In this document: one piece after another, positions 27,619 to 61,900 of the stretch
How positions within the stretch are numbered: position 1 is the first letter of the stretch
How the letters are laid out: each line of letters opens with the position of its first letter
DNA from: an uncultured Gammaproteobacteria bacterium
Lineage (GTDB): Bacteria; Patescibacteriota; Patescibacteriia; CAZSQN01
Length of the DNA stretch: 64,000 nucleotides
Assembly (NCBI GenBank): GCA_964609095.1
Contig: CAZSQN010000002.1
Coordinates: 88,066 to 152,065, forward strand
Direction of reading: 5' to 3'
The notes under the pieces: model-generated
Seen by the model: the letters and a program-made list of their open reading frames with translations, nothing else
Told to the model about the DNA's origin: nothing
Databases searched by the model: none
Position numbers and translations under genes: made by a program

Positions 27619-27723
27619 AAGAGATAAGAGATAAGAGATAAGAGTTAAGAGTTAAAAATTTAGAAAGCTCTCTCAACTTTCAACTTTTAACTTTCAGCTT
27701 ACAGCTTACAGCTTTATCTTTAT
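27619..27723. repeat. Paired heptamer blocks: (AGAGATA)x3(AGAGTTA)x2 … (AACTTTC)x3(AGCTTAC)x3
   Basis: Seen directly; the second block ends at the subtilase stop codon. Confidence 0.8.
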
Positions 27724-30014
27724 TATCGCAACACTGCCGCGTTAACGCCGCCGCGCATATCTTTGCCATAAGCGTCCACTTGCGAAAAAAGCAGCCCGTC
27801 GGGAGTAAAGGTGCGCAATATCGGATCCGCGCCTGCTCCGGCGCCGGTAATTATCTCGCTTTTGCCGTCGTTGTCAAAATCAAAGGAGGCAAGCGTGACT
27901 CCGGACGATTTGCCGTTTACATACGCCTGAAATTCGTGGCGGAGAATCCCTTTGGCGTTAAAAATCTTCACATTGCGGCGCCGACCTCCGGCCGGAGCAA
28001 TGGCTATTTCGCTTATCTTATCGCCGTCAATGTCAATTGCCTGCGCTTCCACGCCTCCCAAAAAAGATTGCTCATAGGCGAAAAACTCCGAGATTGGAAT
28101 TCCGTCTCCCTGAAAAATCTGCACATGGGGTCCGCCGCCCGGACCGGCGGAAACAATTATTTCGTCATTGCCGTTTCCTTCCACATCTCCGGCGGTTATG
28201 CCAAACGCACCCCTGAATTTGCGCGAAAAAGGAAAAAATCTGTAATGAAGCGTGCCGTCAAAACCAAAAATCCTTACCTCGGCGTCGCGGCCGCCTCCGC
28301 TCGCGGCCACAATCTCGTCTATGCCGTCTCCATTCACATCCGAAGCGGCCACGCGCACGCCTCCGCGGTAAGATGTTTCAAAAGCGAAAAAATTTTTTAT
28401 CGGCGTGCCGTCCGGCTTAAAGACGCGGATATGAGGCCCGCCTCCGGCGCCGGCTCCCGTGATTATCTCCTGGCTTCCGTCTCCGTCCAAATCGCCCGTG
28501 GCAACGGAAACGCCTCCCTTAAAAGACGGCGCGTAAGCCATAAAAGATCTTTCAATTGTTCCGTCGCGGGCGATTATTCTTACTTCCGGCGCGTATTGTC
28601 TTGCCGGCGCGACAACATAACGCGGCTCTGCCGTCGGCACCGCGATGCGGTTCCCGGCTGCCGTGCGCGTGGTATTGCCGGCGCGCAAAGCCGCCGCCAA
28701 GTCCGGTTTTCCCCGGCCGAGCTTTCCGCGAAAATTAGGGTTGACGGAATCAACGGGCACGGCATTGCTAAGGAGCAGGTCCCTCATTTCAATGTTGGTA
28801 AAAGAAAGATCAAAGGCCTTAAGCAAGGCCGCGCCGCCCGCGACTTGCGGAGCGGCCATTGATGTGCCTCGCCAGGGGCCGCCAAAAGCAAGGCCGTAAT
28901 CGGGCAAGGAGGGGTCATAATATTGCGCGCTAAAAATGCCAATGCCGGGAGCAGCCAGGTCCACGCAGCGGCCGTAATTGGAAAACTTTAATTTTTGATC
29001 AAGAGTATCCAAAGCGGCAACGGCTATGACCCAGTTTTCCCCGGACGGGCCGTCGGAGCAAGCCGGATAAACCAACACCGCGTCCATATCAATTCCGTTT
29101 TGCCCGTTCAAGGTTGAGTTGCCGGCCGCCACCACGACAAGCGCTCCGGCGTTATACGCGCGCTCAATCGCCCGCTCCAGCGTGATGCTGCGCTCCGTGC
29201 CAACAAAAGAAAGATTTAAGATCTTAGCCCCGTTTTTAATGGCGTAATCAATGGCCGCGGCAACAGTGGCGGCGTTGCCGGCGCCTTTGGAATCAAGAAC
29301 GCGCAGGGGCATAATTTTAACTTTCCAGGCAACGCCCGCGCCCTCTGAGCCGTTATTGCCGACGGCGCCGATTATTCCGGCCACCACCGTTCCGTGATTT
29401 ATGCCCGTTGCCGTGGCGCCGATGCCAAATTGCGGAGAAACATCGTTTGTTCCCTCAATAAAGTTCCAGCCATGGATATCGTCAATGTAGCCGTTTCCGT
29501 CATCATCTCGGCCGTTGCCGGCGACCTCAAGCGTATTTGTCCAGATATTGCCGGCCAAATCCGGATGGTCCAAATCCAAACCCGTATCCAAAACCGCGAC
29601 AACCGCGTCTTCAGAGCCGGTAGAAACGTCCCATGCCTCCGGCGCGTTGATTTGCGGCAGATGCCACTGCTTTGGGTATTCGGGATCGTTTGGCAAAAGC
29701 GCCATGCCGTAAGAAGCGTTTTTCTCAGCATACTCAACCCAGGGGTTGGCATTATAAATCCGCAGCAGCTCCCCGGCTCCCATGTCCGCAAAAGGCGCGA
29801 CTAAATATGGCTTTTCCCTGCTCCGAAGTTTAACCAAAATCTCTCCGCTATCTTCCAAAGACGAATCCTTATTTCCCAAAGCCAGCCCTTGGCCGGCCGA
29901 AAAGATCAAAAAAGCCGCCAAAAAGACGGCAAAGGGGTAAAAAACAAATAAAAAACGGGTAAAGCGCCGTTCGGAGGGCGCGCAGGAAAAAAATTTTTTA
30001 CAGCCAAAACGCAT
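27723..30014 (-). CDS. Subtilisin-like serine protease (S8) with C-terminal FG-GAP/VCBS repeat domain
   Basis: Catalytic triad D (VAVLDTGLDLDHPD), H (HGTVVAG), S (GTSMAAPQVAG); five or more repeats of …GDLDGDGSQEIITGAGAGGGPHIRVF…; N-terminal signal/TM. Confidence 0.88.
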   Translation of the reverse strand: MRFGCKKFFSCAPSERRFTRFLFVFYPFAVFLAAFLIFSAGQGLALGNKDSSLEDSGEILVKLRSREKPYLVAPFADMGAGELLRIYNANPWVEYAEKNASYGMALLPNDPEYPKQWHLPQINAPEAWDVSTGSEDAVVAVLDTGLDLDHPDLAGNIWTNTLEVAGNGRDDDGNGYIDDIHGWNFIEGTNDVSPQFGIGATATGINHGTVVAGIIGAVGNNGSEGAGVAWKVKIMPLRVLDSKGAGNAATVAAAIDYAIKNGAKILNLSFVGTERSITLERAIERAYNAGALVVVAAGNSTLNGQNGIDMDAVLVYPACSDGPSGENWVIAVAALDTLDQKLKFSNYGRCVDLAAPGIGIFSAQYYDPSLPDYGLAFGGPWRGTSMAAPQVAGGAALLKAFDLSFTNIEMRDLLLSNAVPVDSVNPNFRGKLGRGKPDLAAALRAGNTTRTAAGNRIAVPTAEPRYVVAPARQYAPEVRIIARDGTIERSFMAYAPSFKGGVSVATGDLDGDGSQEIITGAGAGGGPHIRVFKPDGTPIKNFFAFETSYRGGVRVAASDVNGDGIDEIVAASGGGRDAEVRIFGFDGTLHYRFFPFSRKFRGAFGITAGDVEGNGNDEIIVSAGPGGGPHVQIFQGDGIPISEFFAYEQSFLGGVEAQAIDIDGDKISEIAIAPAGGRRRNVKIFNAKGILRHEFQAYVNGKSSGVTLASFDFDNDGKSEIITGAGAGADPILRTFTPDGLLFSQVDAYGKDMRGGVNAAVLR

Positions 30015-33334: not shown

Positions 33335-33398
33335 TTAGCGTTTAGCGATTAGCGTATAGCGTTTAGTTTCCTAAACCCTAAACGCTAAACCCTACACC
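33335..33398. repeat. Paired heptamer blocks: (TAGCGNT)x4 … (CTAAACN)x4
   Basis: tagcgtt tagcgat tagcgta tagcgtt … ctaaacc ctaaacg ctaaacc ctacacc; the second block overlaps the last codons of the dehydrogenase ORF. Confidence 0.75.
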
Positions 33399-34262
33399 CT
33401 CGCCGTGAAACGGCGCCAGAGGCGGCGCGTATGACTTATTGTCCGTTGTCTGAGGCCGTGCTGGCGCGCCGGGCGCTATGGCTTCTTTGGCGCGCAGTTT
33501 GTTGTTAATCTCTTCCGCTTTTTTAAGCAAATCCATTTGCACGCCGATACTCTCTCCGTATTGGATCAAAGCGCGCGTGTCTTTGGGCAAGCACGCTCCG
33601 CCGTAGCCGCGATAGCCGCCGTGAAATATTTCCAAATGCGACGGCCCGATGCGCTTATCCGCCGCCACGCATTCCTTAACAATATTATAGTCAACTCCGG
33701 CGCCAACGCAGAGATCGTACATCTGATTGGCAAACACCACTTTGGCGGAAAACCAGGTGTTGCCAAAATACTTAATCATTTCCGCTTCTTTTGCGGGCAC
33801 AACGCGTTCAAACGGAGCAAGCGGCAAAATCGCGATTAGCGTCCCGGCCGCGTTATAACTTTTGGCGGTATAGCCGACTATCTGCCTGTCGGGAAAAGAC
33901 ATATCGTTATCAGCGGATGACTGAGTCAAAAATTCCGGATTGAACAAAAATTTATGCTGCGGAAATTCTTCCTGTAAGACATCGGTTGTCCCGGGAAGAA
34001 CCGTTGATTTTATAACGACTATTTTTTCTCCGGTTAACGCGCCAATTGCCGCCTTTACGTACGAAAGGTCAAAACCGCCGTTAGCCTCGTCATAAGGGGT
34101 GGGCACGCATATAAAAACAATATCGGCTCTGTTTACTTCTTCTAACGAGCCCTCATTTTTATATTTATCAAAACAAAAGGGCTGGACTCCCCGTTTTTCA
34201 AAATATCGTTTAATCGCTCCGCCGACCATGCCGGCGGAACCCACGATGCCTATCAATGCCAT
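33378..34262 (-). CDS. UDP-glucose/GDP-mannose dehydrogenase family protein, short form lacking the C-terminal UDP-binding domain
   Basis: N-terminal Rossmann GIVGSAGMVGG; catalytic GGACLPKD; only 294 aa; the C-terminal ~30 aa are low-complexity and run into the repeat block. Confidence 0.65.
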   Translation of the reverse strand: MALIGIVGSAGMVGGAIKRYFEKRGVQPFCFDKYKNEGSLEEVNRADIVFICVPTPYDEANGGFDLSYVKAAIGALTGEKIVVIKSTVLPGTTDVLQEEFPQHKFLFNPEFLTQSSADNDMSFPDRQIVGYTAKSYNAAGTLIAILPLAPFERVVPAKEAEMIKYFGNTWFSAKVVFANQMYDLCVGAGVDYNIVKECVAADKRIGPSHLEIFHGGYRGYGGACLPKDTRALIQYGESIGVQMDLLKKAEEINNKLRAKEAIAPGAPARPQTTDNKSYAPPLAPFHGEGVGFSV

Positions 34263-34283: not shown

Positions 34284-36197
34284 TTAAGGCAAATACGGCT
34301 TTAATCTCTGAAGCGCCGCTCTAAAGCCCTCATAATTATTCAAATGCCCCTCCCAAATCTCCGGCGTCCATGAGAACGTCTGATTCTTCAAGATATCAAA
34401 TACCTTGCCGAATTCTATTTCTCCTTCGCCGATATTCACTGCTTCCACCGTAATCCCCGAAGCGTCGGCAATATGAATATGGTCGGTTATCGGCGCGACG
34501 GTTCTCACGTAATCCAGATAATCTTTTCCCGCAAAATTACAATACAATTTGGAGTGCGCCGTGTCAAAGCACATTTTGAGCCCGAGGCCGCGGCAAAATT
34601 GAACCATTTCTTCCGCGTCCATAAAAACCTTGTGAAACCATTGGCCGGCAAAATACCAGGCGAACGGAGGCAGGTTTTCAGGCAGGAGCGTGATACCGTC
34701 ATAAGAAAGGCGGCTTATGGCCTCATGCGCCCGCTCCAAAAGCAATTTGCCGTCCATCGGCTTCTGGTCCATAACCATACCGCCGGTATGAATGACGTAT
34801 TTGGGCGCGCCGGAAAAATAAGGCGCGAGCTGGCGCGTCAAATCCAAAGATTTTTGAATGAATTTAATTGACCTGTTCCATTCTTCGTCATCCAACGAAC
34901 AAAGGTCATTCATCCGCCTTTGCCAGTAATCGGGAGCGTGGATTACCAGCATTTGGTCGTATTTTCTCTTCGGCTCCCATCCCTCTTCCACATCGCGGTC
35001 GGTCAAATGAAACTCAAAAAACTTGGGATTAAAAAGCGCGGCAAAATCCGCCTCGTGAAAACGGGTCTTTAAACCCCACAAGGATTTATAATCATAATGT
35101 TCGGGCTTAAAATTTTCCCCGCGAAGGTCCGCCTCGGTAAAAAGATCGTCTTTGGGTATGTCGCGCAAGGCCTTGACTCCGACCAGTTCATAAATCTTCT
35201 GCGGAGAAAGGCCTTTTGCCGGACCTTTGACCGTAATCATTTCTTTGGTTATTTCCGTTCCCTTTTTAATATCCGCTGCCGCGACCAAGCTTTTGCCAAG
35301 CACTTTCCTATTCATTATCTCGCCGTGGCTGCGCACTTTGGACGGAGCGCCAAGCGCCTTTTCAATTTCCCTTATACTTTTTACCATCTGACTAAATTCT
35401 TCCGGTTCCAAACTTGCCAGATGATCCGGGCCTTCGTCATGGCGGTTTAAAGTAATATGCCGCTCAACAATGCACGCGCCGCGCGCCACGGCCGCAAGCG
35501 ACGGGTTCATCCCCCGCTCATGACCGGAATATCCGACAGGCACGCCAAAAAGCTCGCGAAGCTTGTCAATAAACAAAAGGTTTAAATCCTCAATGGGAGC
35601 GGGATAAACCCCGACGCAATGAAGAAGCGCGAAGTTCACTCCGAGTTTTTGAAGAAACTCCACGGAATTTTTTGTTTCCAAAATGGTTGAAAGCCCGGTT
35701 GAGGCGATAACCGGCTTAGAGGTCGCGGCAATCCGTTCCAGCAAAGGGAAGTTGGTAAGGTCGCAAGAAGCGATTTTATAAAAATCAACATTAAGTTTTT
35801 CAAGAAAATCAACGCTCGGAATGTCAAAAGGCGTGCATAAAAACTGCGCGCCCTTGGCCTCCGTGTATTCTTTCAGCTCCTTCATCTGCTCAAAGCTCAA
35901 ATCGCATTCGCGGTAAATCGGCAGAATATAGCTAAAGCTCTGTTCGCCCAAGTTTGGGTTTTCCAGCAATTTTTTCTGGTACAATGTCTCAAGATCGCGT
36001 TTTTGAAACTTTACGACATCGGCGCCGGCAGCTACGGCGGCGGAAACGAGTTCTTTGGCGCGCGAAAAACTGCCGTTATAATTTATGCCGATTTCGGCAA
36101 TGATCATAACCGGCTTTCCTTGCCCGACTTCAAATTTCCCCAATCTAATATTTTTGGGCATATTAAACAAGTTTATCATAAAAACCGCGCCTGTCAA
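34284..36197 (-). CDS. Fusion protein: NeuB-family nonulosonic-acid synthase (with SAF domain) fused to a xylose-isomerase-like TIM-barrel domain
   Basis: N-terminal …PVMIIAEIGINYNGSFSRAKELV…GADVVKFQ…; central SAF-like …LVAAADIKKGTEITKEMI…; the C-terminal 280 aa carry TIM-barrel metal-site motifs (…VIHAP…CFDTAH…HIHIADA…EIWEGH…). Confidence 0.7.
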   Translation of the reverse strand: MTGAVFMINLFNMPKNIRLGKFEVGQGKPVMIIAEIGINYNGSFSRAKELVSAAVAAGADVVKFQKRDLETLYQKKLLENPNLGEQSFSYILPIYRECDLSFEQMKELKEYTEAKGAQFLCTPFDIPSVDFLEKLNVDFYKIASCDLTNFPLLERIAATSKPVIASTGLSTILETKNSVEFLQKLGVNFALLHCVGVYPAPIEDLNLLFIDKLRELFGVPVGYSGHERGMNPSLAAVARGACIVERHITLNRHDEGPDHLASLEPEEFSQMVKSIREIEKALGAPSKVRSHGEIMNRKVLGKSLVAAADIKKGTEITKEMITVKGPAKGLSPQKIYELVGVKALRDIPKDDLFTEADLRGENFKPEHYDYKSLWGLKTRFHEADFAALFNPKFFEFHLTDRDVEEGWEPKRKYDQMLVIHAPDYWQRRMNDLCSLDDEEWNRSIKFIQKSLDLTRQLAPYFSGAPKYVIHTGGMVMDQKPMDGKLLLERAHEAISRLSYDGITLLPENLPPFAWYFAGQWFHKVFMDAEEMVQFCRGLGLKMCFDTAHSKLYCNFAGKDYLDYVRTVAPITDHIHIADASGITVEAVNIGEGEIEFGKVFDILKNQTFSWTPEIWEGHLNNYEGFRAALQRLKPYLP

Positions 36198-36210: not shown

Positions 36211-37254
36211 TTAATCCGCCTTCAACGAAACGCGTTTGCCATCCCTCCACGATTCCATCGCGGCAAAGCTCGCTTCCAATGTCTTAAGCGCGTCAGCGCC
36301 GTCAATAACGGGCTTGCCGCCGCGGCAAAGAAGCTCCAAAAAATGCCATATTTCCTCCACAAACATATCATTTCTGTTCATTTCCGAAGGATATGTCTCC
36401 GTCCGTTTCGGTTCGGCATAATAAACATCAATCCTATTGGCAGACATATACGAATCCCAAAAAATTGACCCCTTCTCGCCGGTCACCCACATTTCCTTGC
36501 GCGGACGCCTGCCAAGCGCGTCAAGATGAATTGATGAAACAATCCCATTTTGGTGCAGGCAAATCAGTTTGGAGAGATCATCGGTATCCACCGTCACTTC
36601 GCCGACCCGCCCGACAAAAGCCATCACCTCTTTAACCTCGCCAAAAAGCCAGCGGGCAAAATCAATGGTGTGATTTTCATCCAAAAGCTCGCCGCCGCCA
36701 AGATTCTTATTGCCCATATACCATGCGCCGGGCTTCTCCCACGGGTGCCATCCGGGCAGCCATTCTGAAAAAGTAATCTCCGCCGCGAATATCTTGCCGA
36801 TGGCTCCGGCTTTAAGCAATTCTTCAATCTTTTTGAGCGAATCGGAAAAACGGTAAGTATAGCCGACAAAAACAAAACGTTTAGCCGCATCCGCGGCGCG
36901 CAAAAAATCAGCCACGCCTTCCAAGCGGTCGGAAATGGCTTTTTCCATCAAAATGTGAGCGCCGTGAGCCACGGCTTTATTGCCGCTGTCTATGTGGAAA
37001 GCGGTCGGATTGGCAATAATCACGCCGTCAAACTTGCCGTTGGCATAGGCCTCGTCTTCGGACGCGTATAAAACAACTTCGCCAAAACGTTCACGGAGCT
37101 CCGCCCGGCGGTCTTCGCGCGGCTCCACGACCGCGACATTACTAGCTCCAAGGCCAAGCAGATTTCCAAGATGCCTTTTGCCGATTGAGCCGCCGCCGAC
37201 AATTAAAATCTTTACCCGCTCAAGGAACTCGCGGGGAACGCGGGGATTTTCCAT
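36211..37254 (-). CDS. Gfo/Idh/MocA-family NAD(P)-dependent oxidoreductase
   Basis: …VKILIVGGGSIGKRHLGNL…; ORF-track start 37380 would overlap the next gene, so MENPRV at 37254 is preferred. Confidence 0.75.
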   Translation of the reverse strand: MENPRVPREFLERVKILIVGGGSIGKRHLGNLLGLGASNVAVVEPREDRRAELRERFGEVVLYASEDEAYANGKFDGVIIANPTAFHIDSGNKAVAHGAHILMEKAISDRLEGVADFLRAADAAKRFVFVGYTYRFSDSLKKIEELLKAGAIGKIFAAEITFSEWLPGWHPWEKPGAWYMGNKNLGGGELLDENHTIDFARWLFGEVKEVMAFVGRVGEVTVDTDDLSKLICLHQNGIVSSIHLDALGRRPRKEMWVTGEKGSIFWDSYMSANRIDVYYAEPKRTETYPSEMNRNDMFVEEIWHFLELLCRGGKPVIDGADALKTLEASFAAMESWRDGKRVSLKAD

Positions 37255-37312
37255 CCTGTTTTTCCATTTGTAGTAATCGCTATGTTCTACCCAGCCAATC
37301 ATAAAATAAAAA

Positions 37313-38059
37313 TTATTTTTCGCGCTCCAGCCGCTCGGCCATAAACTTTTCCGCCACGGCAAAGTCCTCCAAAGAATCAATGTTTACCGACTCTTCGGCC
37401 GGCATAACAAAACCAAAAATATTTTGTCCGCTCATAGAGTTCATTTCTAAAATCACTTCCGGCCTGATTACGTCAACCGAACCGTTCTGCGCAAAAACCG
37501 GCATTTTGTCCTGCAAAATTTGGCGGGCGCTATTGTAGGCCTCGGGCACTTCCGGATGCGTGAGGAGCGGAGTTAATCGCTCGCCTTCCAAACGCCACAT
37601 TTTAAGCGGATGCTTTGGCGTTGGCGTGACTGAACGGACGGAATGAGCCTCGGGGTGTTCCAAAAACATTTTAACGCCGAAATCAATGTGTTCGGCGCGG
37701 CGAAGCGGAGCAGTCGGCCGCAGCTGCACCACCGCGTCGGGCTTATAATTTTCTTTTTCTTCCAAATACCGCAGGGCGTGCTGCATCACCGGCAAATCCA
37801 AGGTCCGGTCAGCGGCCAATTCTTTGGGGCGCATAAACGGCGCTTCCGCGCCGTATTCTGCCGCGACTTTGGCAATTTCCTCATCATCGGTGGAAATAAT
37901 TATCCGATTTATGTATTTTGATTTTTTCGCCTCCAAAACCGTCCAGGCCAAAAGCGGTTTGCCGGAGAGCATTCTGATATTCTTGCGCGGCACGCCTTTG
38001 CTGCCGCCGCGCGCCATCAGCACGCACAAAATCTTCAGATTTTGATTATTTTGTTCCAT
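37313..38059 (-). CDS. CMP-nonulosonic acid synthetase (acylneuraminate cytidylyltransferase family)
   Basis: …ILCVLMARGGSKGVPRKNIRMLSGKPLLAWTV…. Confidence 0.8.
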   Translation of the reverse strand: MEQNNQNLKILCVLMARGGSKGVPRKNIRMLSGKPLLAWTVLEAKKSKYINRIIISTDDEEIAKVAAEYGAEAPFMRPKELAADRTLDLPVMQHALRYLEEKENYKPDAVVQLRPTAPLRRAEHIDFGVKMFLEHPEAHSVRSVTPTPKHPLKMWRLEGERLTPLLTHPEVPEAYNSARQILQDKMPVFAQNGSVDVIRPEVILEMNSMSGQNIFGFVMPAEESVNIDSLEDFAVAEKFMAERLEREK

Positions 38060-38064
38060 AAAAA

Positions 38065-39060
38065 TTATTTTTTAGGATGCGCGGCATACCATTCATAAGT
38101 TCTGCGCAATCCTTCTTCCAGCATTACTTCCGGCCTCCAGCCGACCAGCGCTTGCAGCTTTGATATGTCCGCCCGGCGGCGCGCCACGCTTCCGGGAAGC
38201 GAATCTTTAATGTCAATCGTCTTTGGCTTCCAGCCGGAGAGGTCAAAAAACTTTTCGGCAAGCTCACGCATGGCGATTTCTTCCGCATCGCCTATATGCA
38301 CGGTTAAAACCGGTTGAAGGTCGGTTTTGGAAGAATCCATCAGCATTTGCATCGCGCGTACCGCATCGTCAATATAGCAAAAAGTGCGCGTTTCTTCCGC
38401 GCCCAATATGGTAAACGGATCTTCCCTCTTGGCTATTTTAATAGAAAACTCCGGAATCACATGGTCATAACCGGCGCGCGGCCCGTAAAAATTATGAGGC
38501 CGGACAATCAGCGCGCGGAAATTATGCATTTTGGCATAATGAATGACAAAAAGTTCGCCGATTAGCTTGGTGGCGGCGTAAGACCACCGCGGATTATAAG
38601 GATCGTTGATAACAAGCGGCACCTCTTCCGGAGTGGGAATCGGCAATTGATTAAAGGCGCTAAGAGCGCCGGCATAGGCCTCGTTGGAGGAAGTAAAACA
38701 AAACTTTCCTTTTGGATTTTCTCTCCCAAACCATTCCAGCATATAGATAAGCGACAACGTATTGACGCGCAAAACCTCATGCGGCATGGAATAAAACAGC
38801 TTCGTGCCGTTTACCGCCGCCAAATGATAAACATGGTCATAGCCGCTGCCGAGTTTCGCATATGAGGCAGAATCGGTTAAATCCAGATTTAAAAAATTTA
38901 TCCTTTTGTCGCGAAGCAGATTTTCAAAATCATCATCCATTTTCCCGCGCTGAAGATTGTCAATCAACGTCAAACGCGCCCCCTCGCCGTACGCGGCGAG
39001 AAGATGCGACGCTAAATGATAACCGATAAATCCCGCTCCGCCAGTAATTAAAATTTTCAT
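38065..39060 (-). CDS. NAD-dependent epimerase/dehydratase (extended SDR)
   Basis: MKILITGGAGFIGYHLASHLL…; the ORF-track N-extension overlaps the next gene, so the start at 39060 is preferred. Confidence 0.75.
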   Translation of the reverse strand: MKILITGGAGFIGYHLASHLLAAYGEGARLTLIDNLQRGKMDDDFENLLRDKRINFLNLDLTDSASYAKLGSGYDHVYHLAAVNGTKLFYSMPHEVLRVNTLSLIYMLEWFGRENPKGKFCFTSSNEAYAGALSAFNQLPIPTPEEVPLVINDPYNPRWSYAATKLIGELFVIHYAKMHNFRALIVRPHNFYGPRAGYDHVIPEFSIKIAKREDPFTILGAEETRTFCYIDDAVRAMQMLMDSSKTDLQPVLTVHIGDAEEIAMRELAEKFFDLSGWKPKTIDIKDSLPGSVARRRADISKLQALVGWRPEVMLEEGLRRTYEWYAAHPKK

Positions 39061-39061
39061 A

Positions 39062-40429
39062 TCAAAGATGGCTGGGCAAACCGGGAATGTTGTCGTAGCC
39101 CAGATTGCTGTAATGAATATCGGCAAATTTGGCAATTCTATCGGCGCCGTACAATTTCCATCCGTCAAAAATCAACGCTGGTTTTTTCATCAGCGGCAGA
39201 TAACGGTGAATGTCCAGATTTTTAAAATCGTGGTGGTTGGTGGCAAGAATGGCCGCGTCCGCGCCGCGAAATCCTTCTTCAAGATTAACGAATTTGAGGC
39301 CGTAGGGAGACAGCGCCTCCGACGGCACAACCGGGTCATAGCCGCAAACGTTAAAATTTTTCTCTTGCAATTTTTTGGCAATTTCCAATCCGGACGAAAA
39401 TCTGATGTCGGAAGTCGGCGGATGCCCCTTAAAAGCCAGTCCGGCAATAAATATCTTTGAGTCCCGCGCGCTTTTGCGGCTGGCTTCCATAAATCTGCTT
39501 ACCTGCCGGCAGACATAATCAGGCATCGCCTCATTTACGGCGCGGGCTTGCGTAATCAGTTTCGGCTCAAACCCTTTAGCCAGCGACGCCTCCAGCAAGA
39601 TATACGGGTCTTTGGTTAAGCAATAACCGCCCACTCCCGGGCTTGGCTGCGGCACAGCGCTGCGCTCATAACCGAAGTTGGCCGCGCTTATGACTTCGTG
39701 CGAATCAAGATTAAATTTATCGCAAATAAGCGCCACCTCATTGGCAAAAGCAAAAGTCACATCGCGATAAAGATTATTAACCAATTTAACCATCTCTGCC
39801 GCCTCAAGCGTGGGCAAAAGCACAATTTTGTTGGTTAAAGTCCGGAAAATATCCGCGCATAGCGCCGCGCTTGCCCTGTCATAGCCGCCGATGACCTGCG
39901 GCAGGCGCCTCAACTCGTTTAGGGCGTCGCCCTCTATGGTGCGTTCCGGCGCAAAAGCAATTGAAAAATCCTTGCCCGCCGCCAAACCGGAATATTTAAC
40001 AAGCAAGGGAATAACAAAATCGCGCGTTGTGCCCGGCGGAACGGTTGACCTTAAAATCACTATATCGCCTTGGCGCAGAACCTTGGCAATGGAGATAATG
40101 GATGATTCCAAGTCATTAAAATCCGGCTTCTTGCTCTCTCCCAGTAGCGGCGTGCCCACAGCCACAATATAAATACCGGCAATGGATTCCGAAAACGCGG
40201 TCAAAAATTTAAAACCCTTGCCCAGCTCTTGGCTTAAAAGCTCATTAACGCCGCCCTCGTGAAAATGGCTCTTGCCTTCTTCAAGCTGGCTCACCACCCG
40301 TTCGCGCTTTTCAATGCCGGTTACGGAAAAACCAAGTTCAGAAAGCGTCAAAGCCAAAGTCAAGCCCACATAGCCCATGCCGATAACGCAAACTTTTTTT
40401 TCAAAAATTAAATCATTGCCGGTAGCCAT
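39062..40429 (-). CDS. Nucleotide-sugar dehydrogenase (UDP-glucose/UDP-ManNAc 6-dehydrogenase family)
   Basis: …KKVCVIGMGYVGLTLALTLSELGFSV…; full length with C-terminal domain. Confidence 0.8.
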   Translation of the reverse strand: MATGNDLIFEKKVCVIGMGYVGLTLALTLSELGFSVTGIEKRERVVSQLEEGKSHFHEGGVNELLSQELGKGFKFLTAFSESIAGIYIVAVGTPLLGESKKPDFNDLESSIISIAKVLRQGDIVILRSTVPPGTTRDFVIPLLVKYSGLAAGKDFSIAFAPERTIEGDALNELRRLPQVIGGYDRASAALCADIFRTLTNKIVLLPTLEAAEMVKLVNNLYRDVTFAFANEVALICDKFNLDSHEVISAANFGYERSAVPQPSPGVGGYCLTKDPYILLEASLAKGFEPKLITQARAVNEAMPDYVCRQVSRFMEASRKSARDSKIFIAGLAFKGHPPTSDIRFSSGLEIAKKLQEKNFNVCGYDPVVPSEALSPYGLKFVNLEEGFRGADAAILATNHHDFKNLDIHRYLPLMKKPALIFDGWKLYGADRIAKFADIHYSNLGYDNIPGLPSHL

Positions 40430-40436
40430 AATCATT

Positions 40437-41498
40437 TTATTCAAAATGCTCAAGCTTAATCTGCTCATCAACGGCTATGGCAGAAATAATTCTTTTCCCG
40501 CATAATTTTTCCGCCATCTCCGGCGGAAGTCCGCCTTTGCTTGGGCGCTTAAAGGCAATCATCTCCCGCGTCAAAATCGTTCCGGCAATCAAATCGCCGG
40601 CCGCGACCAAGCTCTGCCCGGCCCAATCTCTTTGCCGCGACAAAAAATCCAGACGCTCGTCCTCCGGTATGTTGCGAAGGGCGGATTCCATATCGCGAAT
40701 CTGCTTAACCATCAGCGCAAACTCATCAGGAAGAAGCGCGCCCGCGTTATCAAGCGATCTCGGATCGTTTTTGTCAAAAGTAAGATGTTTTTCCACAACA
40801 ACGGCTCCCAAAACAACTGCCCCAAGCGGCGCGTGCCAGCCGACAGTATGGTCGGAAATGCCTGCTGGAACTTCAAGCAAATCGCCCAAGCGCTTCATCC
40901 GTCCCAAATTCGCCATCTCGTAAGGCGTGGGATAAGCCGTCACGCAATGAAGCGCGATAATCTCTTTGGCGCCGGCTGATTTTAACGTCTCCATTGCCGC
41001 CCGCGCCTCATCTTCGCTTTGCAAACCAAAAGAGATAATCACGGGCTTGCCTCGTCTTCCGACATTCCGCAAAAATTCCAGATTATGCGCTTCGCCCGAG
41101 CCGATTTTAAAAAGCGGCTGATTCATTTCTTCATCCAGAAAATCCAAACTTTCATCATCGTGCGCGGTGGCAAACACGGCGATGCCGCGTTCTCGCGCGT
41201 AAGCAAACAATTCCTTAATTTCATCAAAAGACATTTCTTTTTCTTTGACCCGATTAAACCAATCATAGCCGAGTTCCGTCTCCAGCCGGGCGCTTACTTT
41301 TTTACTGACAAGCTGTTCGGTCCTCCAGGCCTGAAATTTAACGGCATCGGCTTTGGCCGCTACCGCCGCATCCACTTGTTTCTTTGCCAAATCCAACTGT
41401 CCGTAATTTGTCACCCCACCCTCGCAAATGACAAAAACCGGCTGCCCTCGGCCGATGTTTTTATTGCCCAATTTAACTGTTTTTATCTCTAAATCCAT
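40437..41498 (-). CDS. NeuB-family nonulosonic acid synthase (stand-alone; sialic/pseudaminic/legionaminic acid synthase-like)
   Basis: …PVFVICEGGVTNYGQLDLAKKQVDAAVAAKADAVKFQ…; C-terminal SAF domain. Confidence 0.78.
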   Translation of the reverse strand: MDLEIKTVKLGNKNIGRGQPVFVICEGGVTNYGQLDLAKKQVDAAVAAKADAVKFQAWRTEQLVSKKVSARLETELGYDWFNRVKEKEMSFDEIKELFAYARERGIAVFATAHDDESLDFLDEEMNQPLFKIGSGEAHNLEFLRNVGRRGKPVIISFGLQSEDEARAAMETLKSAGAKEIIALHCVTAYPTPYEMANLGRMKRLGDLLEVPAGISDHTVGWHAPLGAVVLGAVVVEKHLTFDKNDPRSLDNAGALLPDEFALMVKQIRDMESALRNIPEDERLDFLSRQRDWAGQSLVAAGDLIAGTILTREMIAFKRPSKGGLPPEMAEKLCGKRIISAIAVDEQIKLEHFE

Positions 41499-42056: not shown

Positions 42057-42770
42057 TTATTTTTTATTCTTATGCGATAGATACGCTTCAATCAATTCCA
42101 AATCCTCTTTGTAATCTATATCCATTGAATAAATCGGCGGGACTACTATGGGATAATTCCTCTTGCCTTCCAGGCGGCCGCTGCCCAAAAGCGTTTCGCG
42201 GCTGGTAAGCCAGAGATTGGCCGCGTGATAAAATTTTGGTTTGGATTTGCCGATATCCTGATAATGAAGCTCCTCCTGCCAAAAACCGATCGTTCCATCC
42301 TCGTTCATTTTGCGCACATTGTAAGGGTGATTGATAGTATCAACCAAAGAAACTGTTACAACCGAATCGGCTTTCTTCTCCAGCGCCAAAGCAATGGCGG
42401 CTTCTATCTGTTCTGAAGCAATCAAGGGCGTAGCCGCCTGCAAAAGTATGGAATAATCAACGCGATAATTCTCTTTTTCTTCCAATTGTTCCACCGTATA
42501 TTTAATCGCCTCTATAACCGGGCTTATGTCCCCCGCCAAATCCGCCGGACGCATAAAAGGCACTTCGGCGCCGCAATCTTTAGCCGCCGCGGCTATTTTG
42601 TCATCATCGGTTGAAACAATTACCCTATCAACCGATTTCGCGCCAAGGGCGGCGGAGATTGGATAAGAAATCAGCGGTTTGCCCAAAAGAGGATAGACAT
42701 TTTTTCCGGGAAATCTTTTACTGCCGCCCCGCGCCGGAATCAAAACCACGAAATTATCTGAATAAGTCAT
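42057..42770 (-). CDS. Second CMP-nonulosonic/KDO-type cytidylyltransferase
   Basis: …VVLIPARGGSKRFPGKNVYPLLGKPLISYPI…. Confidence 0.8.
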   Translation of the reverse strand: MTYSDNFVVLIPARGGSKRFPGKNVYPLLGKPLISYPISAALGAKSVDRVIVSTDDDKIAAAAKDCGAEVPFMRPADLAGDISPVIEAIKYTVEQLEEKENYRVDYSILLQAATPLIASEQIEAAIALALEKKADSVVTVSLVDTINHPYNVRKMNEDGTIGFWQEELHYQDIGKSKPKFYHAANLWLTSRETLLGSGRLEGKRNYPIVVPPIYSMDIDYKEDLELIEAYLSHKNKK

Positions 42771-43500
42771 AAAATGTTTTGACGCTTAAAACGGAAATCA
42801 GCACGGAAACGATAATCATCGTATGCCGGGGAGGCATTCTCTTGCAAACGTAAGCCGCGAACGGAGCAGCCAGCACGCCTCCAATGAGCAGCCCCGCCAC
42901 CACCTGCCAATGAGTTATGCCGACTATCGGCGTAAGAATGACAACGATGGTCAGGGAAACAAAAAATTCAACGGCGTTTGTTGAACCAACGGCAAAACGC
43001 GGATTATTTCCGCGCGCCGTAAGCGTGCTTCCAACTATCGGCCCCCAGCCGCCGCCTCCGACCGCGTCCAAAAACCCGCCCAAAAAACCAATAGGGGCGA
43101 TTTTAGTATGCACCGGCTTGGTTTTAATAATTTTAAAGGCCTTATAAAGAATAAAAAGGCCCATGCAAAAAAGATAAACAGTGACGGCAAATTTCAAAAA
43201 TCTGCCGGAAACCAAGGTTAGGACCACCGCTCCGAAAGCTCCTCCGGCCATTCCGGGAACCAGCAATTTTTTAAATAACTGTTTGTCTATGTTTTTAAAT
43301 TTAAAATGCGAAATAGCCGAAACAAAGGTGGTGAATATCTCGGCAAAATGCACGCTGGCGCTGGTAATGGCCGGCGGCGTACCCATAGCCAAAAGCAAAG
43401 AGCTCGCGCTAATGCCGTAAGCCATGCCTAGGGCGCCATCAATCATCTGCGCGGCAAAACCCACGATAATAAAAAAGATTAAATCATTTTCTAAAATCAT
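42754..43500 (-). CDS. TauE/SafE-family (DUF81) sulfite/sulfonate permease
   Basis: Two repeated halves with Gly-rich …GGGGWGPIVGSTL… motifs; 7-8 TM. Confidence 0.75.
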   Translation of the reverse strand: MILENDLIFFIIVGFAAQMIDGALGMAYGISASSLLLAMGTPPAITSASVHFAEIFTTFVSAISHFKFKNIDKQLFKKLLVPGMAGGAFGAVVLTLVSGRFLKFAVTVYLFCMGLFILYKAFKIIKTKPVHTKIAPIGFLGGFLDAVGGGGWGPIVGSTLTARGNNPRFAVGSTNAVEFFVSLTIVVILTPIVGITHWQVVAGLLIGGVLAAPFAAYVCKRMPPRHTMIIVSVLISVLSVKTFYDLFR

Positions 43501-43515
43501 GAACGCGGATTGAAT

Positions 43516-44514
43516 TTATTTTTCAGCAAAGAACCGCAATTTTAGGCCGATGCCGAGTTCGTTCATTTTCTGTTCAAGCATCGCCACATTGTCTTTATTA
43601 GCCAAAAACTCGCGGAATTTGTCCGGAAAATATTTATTTTCTTCGTCTCCAAACGGGTCTAAAAACTGCAAATGATTAAAAATTGAATCTTTCCCGGAAT
43701 AAACCGTGTCAATCTCGCACCTATTGAATCCGGCGGTTTTAAATAACCGCTCCAGAGTGCGGCCGGAAAAATAATTCAAATGGTTCCTGCCGGTAAAAGT
43801 TCTGGCCGTTCCGTGCAAAATCATATAAGCCAAGCTTTCCACATTGGGACATCGTCCCAAAAAGATTCCTCCCGGTTTTAAAATCCTGACGATTTCTTTC
43901 ATCACGGCAAGCGGCTGGGGCAAGTGCTCTATCACGCCAAACATTGACACCGCGTCAAAACTGTTGTCGGGAAACTTGCAATCCTCAAGGAGCTTCCGCT
44001 CCACCTTAACGCCGTACATTTCCTCGGCGTAAGACGCTGTTTTTTCGTTTAATTCCAAGCCAACCGTGTCATAACCCAAGTCCTTGCCGGCTTTCAGAAA
44101 AAGGCCGATGGAACATCCGATATCCAGAACTTTGCCTCCCGCGGGTATTTTTGTTTTAAGCTTATCGTAATACGTCTTATAAAGCTCAATATCGGTCCTC
44201 TGCTGTTCCGATGAGAGAACGACCTTCATAAAGGTCTCATGCGAAGGAACATCCTCATTGTAATATTTTAATATGGCTTTTTCTTTTAACTGCGGGTTGA
44301 CGTAAACAAAAGTGCAATTTCCGCATCTAACGAAATCAAAGCCGTTTTTGACAAAAAGATGGTCAAAAAGCGGCGAAGCGCAAATCCGGCAATTTATTTT
44401 CTCCGTCAATTCAGAACGGACTTTGCCGGTTTGCGGATCTATAAGCTCTTCCAATTCCTTATCTCTATAGAAAAAAAATTCGTTCCTATGCGTCGCCTTG
44501 TCAAAATTGCTCAT
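43516..44514 (-). CDS. Class I SAM-dependent methyltransferase with N-terminal Zn-ribbon
   Basis: CRIC…CGNC; motif I VLDIGCSIGLF. Confidence 0.8.
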   Translation of the reverse strand: MSNFDKATHRNEFFFYRDKELEELIDPQTGKVRSELTEKINCRICASPLFDHLFVKNGFDFVRCGNCTFVYVNPQLKEKAILKYYNEDVPSHETFMKVVLSSEQQRTDIELYKTYYDKLKTKIPAGGKVLDIGCSIGLFLKAGKDLGYDTVGLELNEKTASYAEEMYGVKVERKLLEDCKFPDNSFDAVSMFGVIEHLPQPLAVMKEIVRILKPGGIFLGRCPNVESLAYMILHGTARTFTGRNHLNYFSGRTLERLFKTAGFNRCEIDTVYSGKDSIFNHLQFLDPFGDEENKYFPDKFREFLANKDNVAMLEQKMNELGIGLKLRFFAEK

Positions 44515-44534
44515 ATAAATTATTCTATTTACCC

Positions 44535-44607
44535 CGTTAGAAAGACCCTCCTAAATAAATCCAACGAACCCGCTTGTCATAAATTTATAGAATGGACTTT
44601 CTAACGG
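44535..44607. repeat. 14-bp perfect inverted repeat pair separated by 45 bp
   Basis: accccgttagaaag … ctttctaacggggt. Confidence 0.7.
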
Positions 44608-44628
44608 GGTTTAATTAAAATCTTAAAT

Positions 44629-45801
44629 TTAATTTTGCCGCCATTTAATCTTTGGCAAAATAACGGATTTGTCAATTAAACGTTCGGCGTTTTTAATCTT
44701 CACAAGCATGGAATTGACCAGTTCTTCAGAAAGTTTCGTGGGGACAAGGCCTAATCCCAAAAGCTTATCATTCTTCGGATTGTAATAATGCTCTTCTTTT
44801 TCTATGCGGGGATTTTCCAAATGCTCTATCTTAACGTCTATGCCCAGTTTTGCCGCGGCGCGGGCAACCGTTTCGGCCAATTCCATAATGGAAAACACTT
44901 CCGTAAATTGGTTAAAAACCCTGAATTCGCCCGGGGCACCTGGATTTAAGACGGCGAGTTCCACGCATTGCAAGGTGTCGCGGATATTTAAAAATCCGCG
45001 CTTTTGGCCGCCCTTGCCATAAACCGTTAAAGGCATTCCGGCGACCGCCTGCACGCAAAATCTGTTCAAAGCGGTTCCAAAGACATCGTCATAATGAAAA
45101 CTCGTCCTTAAATCATCATGCAAGTTTATTTCTTCCGTTTCCAGCCCATAAACAACTCCCTGGTTCAAATCAGTCGCCTTAAGTCCCCAGACGCGGCAGG
45201 CAAATTCTATATTGTGGCTGTCATGAACTTTGCTCAAATGATAAAAAGAGCCCGGCTGCTTGGGAAAAGGCAGCCGGTCGCTTCTGCCTTTATGGTTTAT
45301 TTCTATATGGCCTTCTTCAATATCTATATTTGGCGTTCCGTATTCGCCCATTGTTCCCAGCTTTACCAAATGAGCGTCAGGCAAAGAATGCCGCATGGCA
45401 AAAAGCACGTTTAAAGTGCCGATGACATTATTTTTTTGGGTCAAAACGGCATTGTGCCTGGAGCGCATTGAGTATGGCGCCGACGGCTGTTCCGCGTAAT
45501 GCACAATGGCGTCGGGACGAAACTCTTCCATTACCCTGTAGATAAAACGGACATCTTCGGCAATATCTCCGACATAGAGCTTGATATCGCCTCTGGCAAC
45601 GGTTTTCCAGGTCGCCATGCGCGCCGGCAAAAGCGGTATTGGGTAAAGAGGCGCGACCCCAACTTGCGCTTCCCAGGCGCGCTTAATCATATTGTCCACC
45701 ACGGCGACCTCGTGCCCGAGACGCGAAAAATGCATGGCCGTAGGCCAGCCCAGGTAACCATCGCCTCCCAATATAAGGATACGCAATTTTTTGTCGCTCA
45801 T
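44629..45801 (-). CDS. sqdB: UDP-sulfoquinovose synthase (SQD1/SqdB/Agl3-like)
   Basis: Long collinear match to the SQD1 signature: ILGGDGYLGWPTAMH…VHYAEQPSAPYSM…LTQKNNVIGTLNVLFA…LVKLGTMGEYGTPNIDIEEGHIEI…LPFPKQPGSFYHLSKVHDSHNIEFACRVWGLKATDLNQGVVYG…ALNRFCVQA; the ORF-track N-extension is probably not real. Confidence 0.85.
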   Translation of the reverse strand: MSDKKLRILILGGDGYLGWPTAMHFSRLGHEVAVVDNMIKRAWEAQVGVAPLYPIPLLPARMATWKTVARGDIKLYVGDIAEDVRFIYRVMEEFRPDAIVHYAEQPSAPYSMRSRHNAVLTQKNNVIGTLNVLFAMRHSLPDAHLVKLGTMGEYGTPNIDIEEGHIEINHKGRSDRLPFPKQPGSFYHLSKVHDSHNIEFACRVWGLKATDLNQGVVYGLETEEINLHDDLRTSFHYDDVFGTALNRFCVQAVAGMPLTVYGKGGQKRGFLNIRDTLQCVELAVLNPGAPGEFRVFNQFTEVFSIMELAETVARAAAKLGIDVKIEHLENPRIEKEEHYYNPKNDKLLGLGLVPTKLSEELVNSMLVKIKNAERLIDKSVILPKIKWRQN

Positions 45802-45817
45802 TTTAGTGGAATGAAAA

Positions 45818-46504
45818 TTATAAACGGGTATGCAGACCGCATTCGCCTCCCAGATTCTGCGTGCCCGTAAATCGTCCGGCGCGCTCAAACTGCCCTTGGC
45901 GGCCTCCGCCTTCGCGCACCTTGCCGCCGGTAGTGCAGGGCTTGCAGCCCAGCGACAAATAACCATGGTCATAGAGCGGATGGTACCGGAGATTATTTTC
46001 TTTTATGTACTGCCAAACATCGTCTTTGGTCCAGAAAGCAATGGGGTTTATTTTGGCGATTTTGCCGGCCTCAACAATGGGCGTATTTTTGCGATACTCG
46101 GTTTCGTCGCGGCGCAAACCGGTAATCCAGGCGTCAAAGCGCGGCAAGGCGCTCTCAATGGCCGGAATCTTCATCTCGCAGCATTTATATTGGTCGTTCT
46201 TGATGAACGAGTCCCCATATTGTTCGTCTATCCGCTTAATGTCTTCCGAACCGGGATGCAGCCATTCAAAATTTAATTTCAATTCTTCAACCAAAGAATT
46301 GCCGTAAGACAATGTTTCTTCAAATTCATAACCGGTATCAATGCCCAAAAAACATAAATCGGGTTTGGCCTTGGTGGCCAAATCCACGATGACCCGCGAA
46401 TCCTTGCCAAAAGAGCAGGCGGCAAAAATGCGCGGATAGGCCTTGACCGCCAGTTTAATTATAGTTTGGGAGAGATCGGCTTTTTCTTTTAGAGTCAAAT
46501 TCAT
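45818..46504 (-). CDS. cysH: Phosphoadenylyl-/adenylyl-sulfate reductase (CysH family, Fe-S type)
   Basis: P-loop-like ACSFGKDSRVIVDLA; Cys pairs KCCEMK and CKPC; C-terminal ECGLH. Confidence 0.85.
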   Translation of the reverse strand: MNLTLKEKADLSQTIIKLAVKAYPRIFAACSFGKDSRVIVDLATKAKPDLCFLGIDTGYEFEETLSYGNSLVEELKLNFEWLHPGSEDIKRIDEQYGDSFIKNDQYKCCEMKIPAIESALPRFDAWITGLRRDETEYRKNTPIVEAGKIAKINPIAFWTKDDVWQYIKENNLRYHPLYDHGYLSLGCKPCTTGGKVREGGGRQGQFERAGRFTGTQNLGGECGLHTRL

Positions 46505-60778: not shown

Positions 60779-60795
60779 AATTTGCCGAATGAAAT

Positions 60796-61896: not shown

Positions 61897-61900
61897 AAAA

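Follow-up and report, generated by a model that had tools for sequence, protein, structure and literature searches.

What does a metal-binding barrel do at the C terminus of a sialic-acid-type synthase? The question is raised by a gene on the minus strand of a 64,000-nucleotide stretch of DNA (hereafter the window; positions 88,066 to 152,065 of contig CAZSQN010000002.1, GenBank assembly GCA_964609095.1, GTDB lineage Patescibacteriota), in which a NeuB-type, phosphoenolpyruvate (PEP)-condensing domain, a SAF domain and a xylose-isomerase-like TIM barrel follow one another in a single reading frame. The fusion is a real single protein that joins a sialic-acid-type synthase to a metal-binding TIM-barrel domain. 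As to its function, we favour, with about even confidence, a bifunctional nonulosonate-9-phosphate synthase/phosphatase, which would probably make Kdn (2-keto-3-deoxynonulosonic acid) from mannose 6-phosphate and PEP.

The mechanically called open reading frame (ORF) at 34284-36197 on the minus strand spans 637 codons from a TTG at 36197 with no internal stop, and an identical public protein (P0001, 100%), entered as ‘N-acetylneuraminate synthase family protein [Candidatus Uhrbacteria bacterium]’, comprises 625 residues from the ATG at 36161. Residues of the fusion are numbered here as in P0001, while Pfam ranges follow the 637-codon ORF. Pfam places NeuB at ORF residues 50-285 (274.6 bits against a cut-off of 22.1), SAF at 303-359 (E 1.2e-11, 45.4 bits against 21) and AP_endonuc_2, the ‘xylose isomerase-like TIM barrel’, at 390-633 (E 5.5e-18, 66 bits against 31.1). 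With all three matches above their cut-offs, the original prediction, which was made from the DNA letters alone, had named the domains correctly, and the motifs that it read in the C-terminal domain (VIHAP, DTAH, HIHIAD and EIWEGH) are present in the translation. That domain combines the above-threshold PF01261 match with a (β/α)8 fold, and in a full-length AlphaFold2 model of the fusion (mean predicted local distance difference test score, pLDDT, 92.2) each domain is confidently predicted.

The fusion recurs far beyond the window, as the original prediction had proposed to check. The same three domains are present in 120 of the 120 best database relatives (46-73% identity), which come from Patescibacteria, Elusimicrobia, Nitrospinota, Anaerolineae and other groups, and the TIM domain shares one ORF with NeuB and SAF in 83 of 84 related loci drawn from many phyla and independent assemblies; it was never free of NeuB among the 83 loci analysed. 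A scan of one genome per species found 414 genomes with two motifs of the C-terminal domain, and an exhaustive profile-free search with this domain alone returned 583 cluster representatives. The matches fall into three length classes of ~625 residues (NeuB-SAF-TIM), ~750 residues (CBS-NeuB-SAF-TIM) and ~275 residues (stand-alone domains or fragments). The ~750-residue class is very large and has cultured members in Xanthomonas campestris, Comamonas aquatica, Synechococcus sp. KORDI-100, Parvularcula marina, Methylobacillus, Actinomyces graevenitzii and Ensifer canadensis. Across both domains the window protein is collinear with the 748-residue X. campestris member of this CBS-bearing class, to which it is 40% identical at 625 aligned positions. 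The fusion proteins fall into one clade of a neighbour-joining tree based on NeuB domains, and within it the 625- and ~750-residue classes are sisters, suggesting that the fusion arose once.

The synthase half matches the Neisseria meningitidis NeuB structures (E 4e-54), and alignment to 1xuu/4ipi shows the Mn/PEP residues to be kept as E23, K51, Q53, K129, S132, S154, H214, E233, H235 and D246, all invariant or nearly so across the fusion family; their counterparts in the Neisseria enzyme, the Mn2+/PEP ligands, we take to be E25, K53, Q55, K129, S132, S154, H215, E234, H236 and D247. The fold and the domain-swapped NeuB plus SAF design are likewise common to the window protein and the N. meningitidis and E. 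coli NeuB enzymes (1xuz), yet those enzymes use free N-acetylmannosamine (ManNAc) supplied by NeuC, have no third domain and lie in a different clade. The NeuB domain scores 255 bits (41% identity) against human NANS, as against 188 bits for N. meningitidis NeuB and 167 bits for the window's own second NeuB, and in the tree it groups with NANS and with synthases associated with HAD-family phosphatases. The NANS-like bacterial relatives are the stand-alone NeuBs that lie beside the fusion in Chloroflexota loci. Residues R55, D113, S116, Y211, G213, E215, D239 and K/R290 are common to the fusion, NANS and these bacterial relatives and are not found in free-sugar-type enzymes. By sequence, the NeuB domain resembles synthases that use sugar phosphates. 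It stays below the cut-offs of both the N-acetylneuraminate synthase equivalog TIGR03569 (347 bits against 399.65) and the PseI model TIGR03586 (258 bits against 340.25). These scores, together with the mainly Kdn output of the homologous system in Serratia, make plain N-acetylneuraminic acid (Neu5Ac) an improbable product, which upholds the expectation of a non-standard sugar.

The Serratia system provides a genetic link between this architecture and a product. The sialic-acid genes of the S. marcescens KL1/KL2 capsule locus are neuA and neuB only; neuB, of 2241 bp, encodes a pfam03102 domain and a COG1082 ‘sugar phosphate isomerase/epimerase’ domain; KL1/KL2 strains yield Kdn and Neu5Ac at ~20:1; and deletion of neuB abolishes both sialic acids and the capsule, the gene-dependence having been shown only for strain UMH9 (Anderson et al. 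2022, PMC9000132). Like the window protein, the Serratia NeuB (746 residues) joins a NeuB-family synthase to a COG1082 domain and is paired with a NeuA cytidylyltransferase, and its size and domains, taken from the published description, fit the ~750-residue class. The window protein differs in having no N-terminal CBS pair (625 against ~750 residues), in keeping H458 and E495, which are N and Q in the long class, and in sitting with Gfo/Idh/MocA, UDP-sugar dehydrogenase and short-chain dehydrogenase/reductase (SDR) genes, unlike the Serratia locus.

The chemistry that we propose is known from animal NANS and NANP and from the Bacteroides thetaiotaomicron Kdn-9-phosphate synthase BT1714 with its HAD phosphatase BT1713, in which a hexose 6-phosphate and PEP give a nonulosonate 9-phosphate that is dephosphorylated and then activated with CMP. 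The NeuB domain of the fusion has the motifs KFQK, GYSGHE, ERHITL and DHxASLEP in common with these systems. NANP and BT1713, however, are separate HAD-family phosphatases, whereas the window protein has a fused TIM barrel and no accompanying HAD domain. A KdsC-like HAD domain occurs in 12 of 18 CMP-transferase genes adjacent to stand-alone NeuBs but in 0 of 45 adjacent to the fusion in the same loci, as counted with an E. coli KdsC query; closely related synthases thus mostly have either a TIM barrel or a HAD phosphatase as partner, not both. In twelve Chloroflexota loci (L023, L026, L030, L037, L041, L043, L048, L059, L063, L064, L074 and L080) both arrangements stand side by side: a fusion of cytidylyltransferase and KdsC-like HAD (~400-465 residues) lies directly upstream of a short stand-alone NeuB (~290-330 residues, apparently without SAF), beside the pair of cytidylyltransferase and NeuB-SAF-TIM genes.

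Gene context also bears on where the pathway begins. When genes within 8 kb of the fusion were counted in the 83 loci, a CTP_transf_3 gene was found in at least 67, Gfo/Idh/MocA in 40, a TagF/BFO_1060-like transferase in 27 and a second NeuB in 24, and NeuC in just 2 and an aminotransferase in 4. A cytidylyltransferase and the fusion are the sole nonulosonate genes in four long-class loci, those of Xanthomonas, Comamonas, Synechococcus and Ensifer, and a pathway encoded by two such genes must start from a central metabolite.

The C-terminal barrel is lined with polar residues that are invariant in the family (W362, R367, E383, H385, D390, H408, H458, E495, D533, H536, H563, D566, E573, E601, W603 and H606), and they include a Glu-Asp-His-Glu metal tetrad (E495, D533, H563 and E601) that is invariant or nearly so in the 625-residue class. 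By sequence, the nearest solved relatives are MJ1311 (E 6e-16), a protein of no known function, and endonuclease IV (Nfo; E 1.6e-7), although the barrels of MJ1311 (3wqo), Nfo and D-tagatose 3-epimerase have only ~20% identity to the TIM domain. Of the nine trinuclear zinc ligands of Nfo (H69, H109, E145, D179, H182, H216, D229, H231 and E261), seven have equivalents that are invariant in the 625-residue class (H408, H458, E495, D533, H536, H563 and E601). A role in DNA repair is unlikely, because the domain is fused to a sugar synthase, and we saw no sign of DNA binding.

The 625- and ~750-residue classes differ within this site. All 60 sequences compared from the 625-residue class have H458 and E495-N496, and all 60 from the ~750-residue class have N458 and Q495-T496 (P0299-P0418; window positions ~34674-34790), while the remaining conserved barrel residues, ~16 polar ones among them, are common to both. 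This switch from H/E to N/Q implies a different metal stoichiometry in the two classes. If both do the same job, that job can use neither the two-Glu mechanism of ketose epimerases nor the full endonuclease IV cluster.

We tentatively propose the following route. The NeuB and SAF part would condense PEP with a central-metabolic hexose 6-phosphate, most likely mannose 6-phosphate, with ManNAc 6-phosphate as a possible minor substrate, to give a nonulosonate 9-phosphate (Kdn 9-phosphate). The fused, metal-dependent TIM barrel would then remove the 9-phosphate, standing in for the HAD-family phosphatase of animals, Bacteroides and the neighbouring stand-alone synthases. The NeuA-like cytidylyltransferase at 37313-38059 would turn the free acid into a CMP-sugar for the BFO_1060-like transferases of the locus, and the Gfo/Idh/MocA enzyme may tailor the CMP-sugar or its precursor. 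We favour phosphatase activity for the barrel because of the NANS-like NeuB domain, the complementarity with HAD domains, the minimal two-gene loci and the motifs resembling endonuclease IV and MJ1311. Architecture, fold, conservation, gene context and the tie of the homologous Serratia enzyme to Kdn are observed facts; that the substrate is phosphorylated, that the barrel is a phosphatase and which sugar this organism makes are inferred. A bolder extension, which we place on the doubtful side of even, is that the barrel is a new kind of sugar-phosphate phosphatase, an endonuclease-IV/MJ1311-like barrel replacing HAD, whose two classes, the 625-residue one with its two-metal ligand set intact at H458/E495 and usually a Gfo/Idh/MocA partner, and the ~750-residue CBS-bearing one with N458/Q495, would differ in metal content and possibly in substrate or product, and that a Kdn derivative not described before could arise here.

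Several observations weigh against the synthase/phosphatase reading. Our literature search turned up no enzymology for the TIM domain of any member, and the phosphatase role is one that earlier authors and we alike infer. The equivalents of Nfo D229 and H231, as judged on alignments to Mycobacterium tuberculosis endonuclease IV and MJ1311, are absent (the family consensus has Gly at both, the window protein V and A), and the TIM domain does not have the full set of nine Nfo ligands. With N458 and Q495 in the ~750-residue class, a common endonuclease-IV-like metal mechanism is not conserved family-wide; the class switch hurts an epimerase model most, but a phosphatase must accommodate it too. 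By fold, epimerases and isomerases are as close to the barrel as endonuclease IV is. The model of the full-length protein has a predicted template modelling score (pTM) of 0.66; such a value predicts no set position of the two active sites relative to each other, allows no claim of a fixed inter-domain geometry and leaves the model silent on channelling. In loci L005 and L040 a stand-alone HAD gene lies close to the fusion, and the proposed route does not account for the Gfo/Idh/MocA gene present in 40 of the 83 loci. Finally, the neighbour-joining tree carries no support values, and the human NANS and E. coli KdsC query sequences behind the similarity scores and HAD counts did not come from database records.

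The alternative with the best remaining claim, which we nonetheless regard as unlikely, is an isomerase or epimerase role for the TIM barrel, which would act on a sugar or sugar phosphate to prepare the aldose acceptor for the NeuB domain, for example by converting fructose 6-phosphate to mannose 6-phosphate, or by epimerisation together with Gfo as in YcjS/YcjR. Organisms such as Serratia and Xanthomonas should already possess a mannose-6-phosphate isomerase. Identity to ketose 3-epimerases is 14-19%, and both catalytic Glu residues are present in the window protein, yet the first is always Gln in the ~750-residue class, so that one of the two catalytic bases of a ketose 3-epimerase is gone there; nor are the nearest solved relatives by sequence epimerases. 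Gfo/Idh/MocA was not found in the four ~750-residue-class loci examined; where the gene occurs it always adjoins the CMP-transferase gene, is fused to one in a single locus (L019) and is often part of a module with the stand-alone NeuB. As it tracks the CMP-transferase and is absent from long-class loci, Gfo is not a dedicated partner of the TIM barrel, and a redox-epimerase pair formed by the two was down-weighted accordingly. Isomerisation would, furthermore, leave the pathway without a phosphatase even though the NeuB domain resembles sugar-phosphate-using synthases, and the Serratia locus makes do with neuA and neuB as its sialic-acid genes (PMC9000132). The original prediction had the fusion couple isomerisation or epimerisation directly to condensation; we found nothing to favour such coupling over dephosphorylation, and the change from Glu to Gln in the sister class speaks against it.

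It is quite unlikely, in our estimate, that the barrel acts on the finished nonulosonate, for instance by 4-epimerisation or dehydration next to the 2-keto group, possibly with Gfo to yield a new sugar, or that it is a non-catalytic oligomerisation or regulatory module. The Serratia enzyme of the same architecture gives ordinary Kdn and Neu5Ac (PMC9000132), which speaks against the former, and the invariance in both classes of ~16 polar residues lining the barrel argues for catalysis over a scaffold.

That the barrel is a nucleotide-sugar phosphodiesterase, freeing mannose or another hexose from GDP-mannose or a UDP-sugar and so playing the part of NeuC, LegG or PseG, seems very unlikely to us, for all that the endonuclease-IV-like motifs would suit it. 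The superfamily includes phosphodiesterases such as endonuclease IV, and CbiR is another. Nearly all loci lack hydrolases of the NeuC/PseG type, a nucleotide-binding CBS pair is present in the longer class, the GDP-mannose-making ManC is adjacent in Ensifer, and the operon of the window, like that of a few other loci, includes a UDP-sugar dehydrogenase and an SDR gene. Only a minority of loci, however, have ManC or UDP-sugar genes as neighbours, the NeuB domain groups with NANS-type and HAD-associated rather than free-sugar synthases, and conservation does not extend to the third metal site, by which endonuclease IV stabilises the leaving group. A separate route from the dehydrogenase and SDR genes, in which a UDP-GlcNAcA decarboxylase would supply a pentose for an 8-carbon acid, was rejected, as those genes accompany the fusion in few loci only, and nothing specific speaks for the 8-carbon sugar that the original prediction had raised. 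There is practically no chance that a frameshift or misassembly joined two genes, since the frame is continuous, the linker and the first barrel residues (W362 and R367) are conserved, and the sharing of the fusion by all 120 best relatives and 83 of 84 loci excludes an artefact.

A fusion of this kind departs from the characterised E. coli and Neisseria NeuB enzymes, as the original prediction held in calling it non-canonical, but it is very widespread and not unrecorded, having been noticed in Leptospira (PMC3438082, PMC4758666) and Serratia (PMC9000132). For L. interrogans, a synthase with a fused “phosphatase” was described by Ricaldi et al. (2012, PMC3438082), who deduced a pathway like that of animals, with the sugar made in 9-phosphorylated form and then dephosphorylated by the fused domain; the description was repeated by Fouts et al. 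(2016, PMC4758666). The Leptospira protein (LA_1613, NP_711794; sas/neuB2) is likewise a nonulosonate synthase; the part read as the phosphatase is its C-terminal domain, a homologue of endonucleases that cleave phosphodiesters. It differs from the window protein in an additional N-terminal ‘transferase’ domain, a full legionaminic-acid cluster and a proposed product of Neu5Ac rather than Kdn. Both the Leptospira and the Serratia proteins are placed in the fusion family by their published domain content and length, not by sequence comparison. The fusion goes unmentioned in one large phylogeny paper on nonulosonic acid synthases.

In Chloroflexota a KpsS/KpsC-like protein is encoded directly downstream of the fusion (40 loci), and these loci also carry genes for the synthesis of 3′-phosphoadenosine 5′-phosphosulfate (PAPS), sulfotransferases and methyltransferases. 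The fusions of Xanthomonas and Comamonas adjoin Maf-type flagellin glycosyltransferases and flagellar genes. The Synechococcus sp. KORDI-100 locus (L087; CP006269.1, 2408443-2426731), with two KpsS/KpsC-like, three DUF6716 and three sulfotransferase genes besides the fusion, looks like a locus for a sulfated surface polymer of the Kdn or Kdo (3-deoxy-D-manno-oct-2-ulosonic acid) type. On the chromid pT173e of the cultured rhizobium Ensifer canadensis T173 (L085; NZ_CP083371.1, 891492-916325), the only match in a search of a plasmid collection, a gene for a ManC-type mannose-6-phosphate isomerase/GDP-mannose pyrophosphorylase lies directly upstream, the order being ManC, cytidylyltransferase, a 784-residue CBS-NeuB-TIM protein and glycosyltransferases. 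5-O-methyl-Kdn is a component of a Sinorhizobium fredii polysaccharide. A Woesearchaeota metagenome-assembled genome (L006, 5801-8704) encodes an archaeal fusion of 959 residues (P0015) with a fourth domain, an S-adenosylmethionine-dependent methyltransferase, after the TIM barrel; methyltransferase genes are often neighbours of the fusion elsewhere too, and together with P0015 they suggest methylated Kdn-type sugars.

In the window itself, the genes of the operon are transcribed in the order stand-alone NeuB, UDP-sugar 6-dehydrogenase, SDR, NeuA-like cytidylyltransferase, Gfo/Idh/MocA, fusion, a truncated ORF resembling UDP-glucose dehydrogenase (UGDH) and a GalE/TviC-like epimerase (Table 1). 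Gfo/Idh/MocA and the CMP-transferase, said by the original prediction to follow the fusion, do adjoin it; as the genes are on the minus strand, both lie upstream of it in transcription. The closest solved relatives of the Gfo/Idh/MocA protein are 3q2k/3q2i (75 bits), presumably WlbA. The cytidylyltransferase is presumed to activate the product of the fusion. Profile matches confirm the stand-alone NeuB already recognised at 40437-41498, which is probably served by the NeuC at 46509-47684 (289.6 bits against a cut-off of 235.9) and the CMP-transferase at 42057-42770. The locus thus holds two nonulosonate modules, one a classical NeuC-NeuB-NeuA route and the other the cytidylyltransferase with the fusion. 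Besides the NeuC and this second cytidylyltransferase, an aminotransferase, a NeuD-type acetyltransferase and three BFO_1060/TagF-like putative nonulosonate transferases lie farther upstream.

Table 1. Coordinates of the fusion, its domains and the genes upstream of it (window positions)
Feature	Position	Strand	Remarks
Fusion gene, NeuB-SAF-TIM barrel	34284..36161	minus	625 aa from ATG at 36161, stop codon included
NeuB (PEP-condensing) domain	35343..36050	minus	PF03102, E 9e-82; alignment to 1xuu/4ipi
SAF (antifreeze-like) domain	35121..35291	minus	PF08666; match to human sialic acid synthase AFP-like domain 1wvo
C-terminal xylose-isomerase-like TIM barrel	34287..35096	minus	Pfam PF01261, match 34299-35030
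Gfo/Idh/MocA oxidoreductase	36211..37380	minus	directly upstream of fusion; probable true start ~50 codons inside ORF
CMP-nonulosonate synthetase (CTP_transf_3, NeuA-like), no HAD phosphatase domain	37313..38059	minus	6ifd CMP-Neu5Ac synthetase, E 4e-33
SDR-type NDP-sugar dehydratase/epimerase/decarboxylase-like gene	38065..39168	minus	same operon as fusion
Nucleotide-sugar 6-dehydrogenase (WecC/UDP-ManNAc-DH-like)	39062..40471	minus	same operon as fusion
Second, stand-alone NeuB+SAF synthase	40437..41498	minus	clade different from fusion's

Other features of the glycan locus, all on the minus strand, deserve brief mention. The truncated ORF directly after the fusion (33378-34262; 294 residues, UDP-glucose/GDP-mannose-dehydrogenase-like) is without the first ~70 positions of the NAD-binding profile and the entire C-terminal UDP-binding domain, is 25% identical to the full-length dehydrogenase at 39062-40471 and may be a pseudogene or a truncated variant. 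The genes at 42754-46504 comprise a TauE/SafE sulfite-exporter-family gene (42754-43500), a methyltransferase, an SDR (44629-45972) resembling UDP-sulfoquinovose synthase (NF041015, 478 bits, below the cut-off of 575) and a reductase for PAPS or adenosine 5′-phosphosulfate (45818-46504); they look like a sulfite-supplying UDP-sulfoquinovose module within a glycan locus of the candidate phyla radiation (CPR). Three paralogues of ~455 residues (47687-49051, 50957-52312 and 54783-56165) have weak Glyphos_transf (TagF-like) matches, and one of them matches the BFO_1060-family glycosyltransferase, the Tannerella protein of that name being a putative nonulosonate transferase. A block at 59498-63944, encoding a LuxC-type acyl-CoA reductase, a LuxE-type acyl-protein synthetase, an Fe-alcohol dehydrogenase and an AMP-binding enzyme, adjoins a DegT aminotransferase and a NeuD-type acetyltransferase and suggests an unusual N-acyl substituent on the second, perhaps diamino, nonulosonate. 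A radical SAM/SPASM protein is encoded inside the locus (52346-53356), and a 763-residue subtilisin-type (mycosin-like) protease just past its end (27723-30014).

For the window, the result is mostly a correct annotation rather than a discovery: the fusion is one more member of a widespread family that was on record before and that genetics connects with Kdn production in Serratia. What is new here is modest, namely the size and breadth of the family, the complementarity of HAD and TIM domains, the H/E to N/Q class switch and the finding that an Uhrbacteria genome holds two nonulosonate modules. No genetic route to a CMP-activated sialic-acid-like sugar is known that is simpler than this family's one cytidylyltransferase and one fused synthase, and the family spans clinically relevant capsules (Serratia), pathogenic Leptospira, flagellin glycosylation islands (Xanthomonas and Comamonas), marine Synechococcus and hundreds of uncultured lineages, small-genome CPR bacteria included. 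If the TIM barrel is indeed a Kdn-9-phosphate phosphatase, the generic annotations ‘N-acetylneuraminate synthase’ and ‘sugar phosphate isomerase/epimerase’ would be corrected, the fusion would serve as a genome marker for predicting Kdn-type glycans, and a further case would be added of a HAD phosphatase replaced by a non-homologous enzyme.

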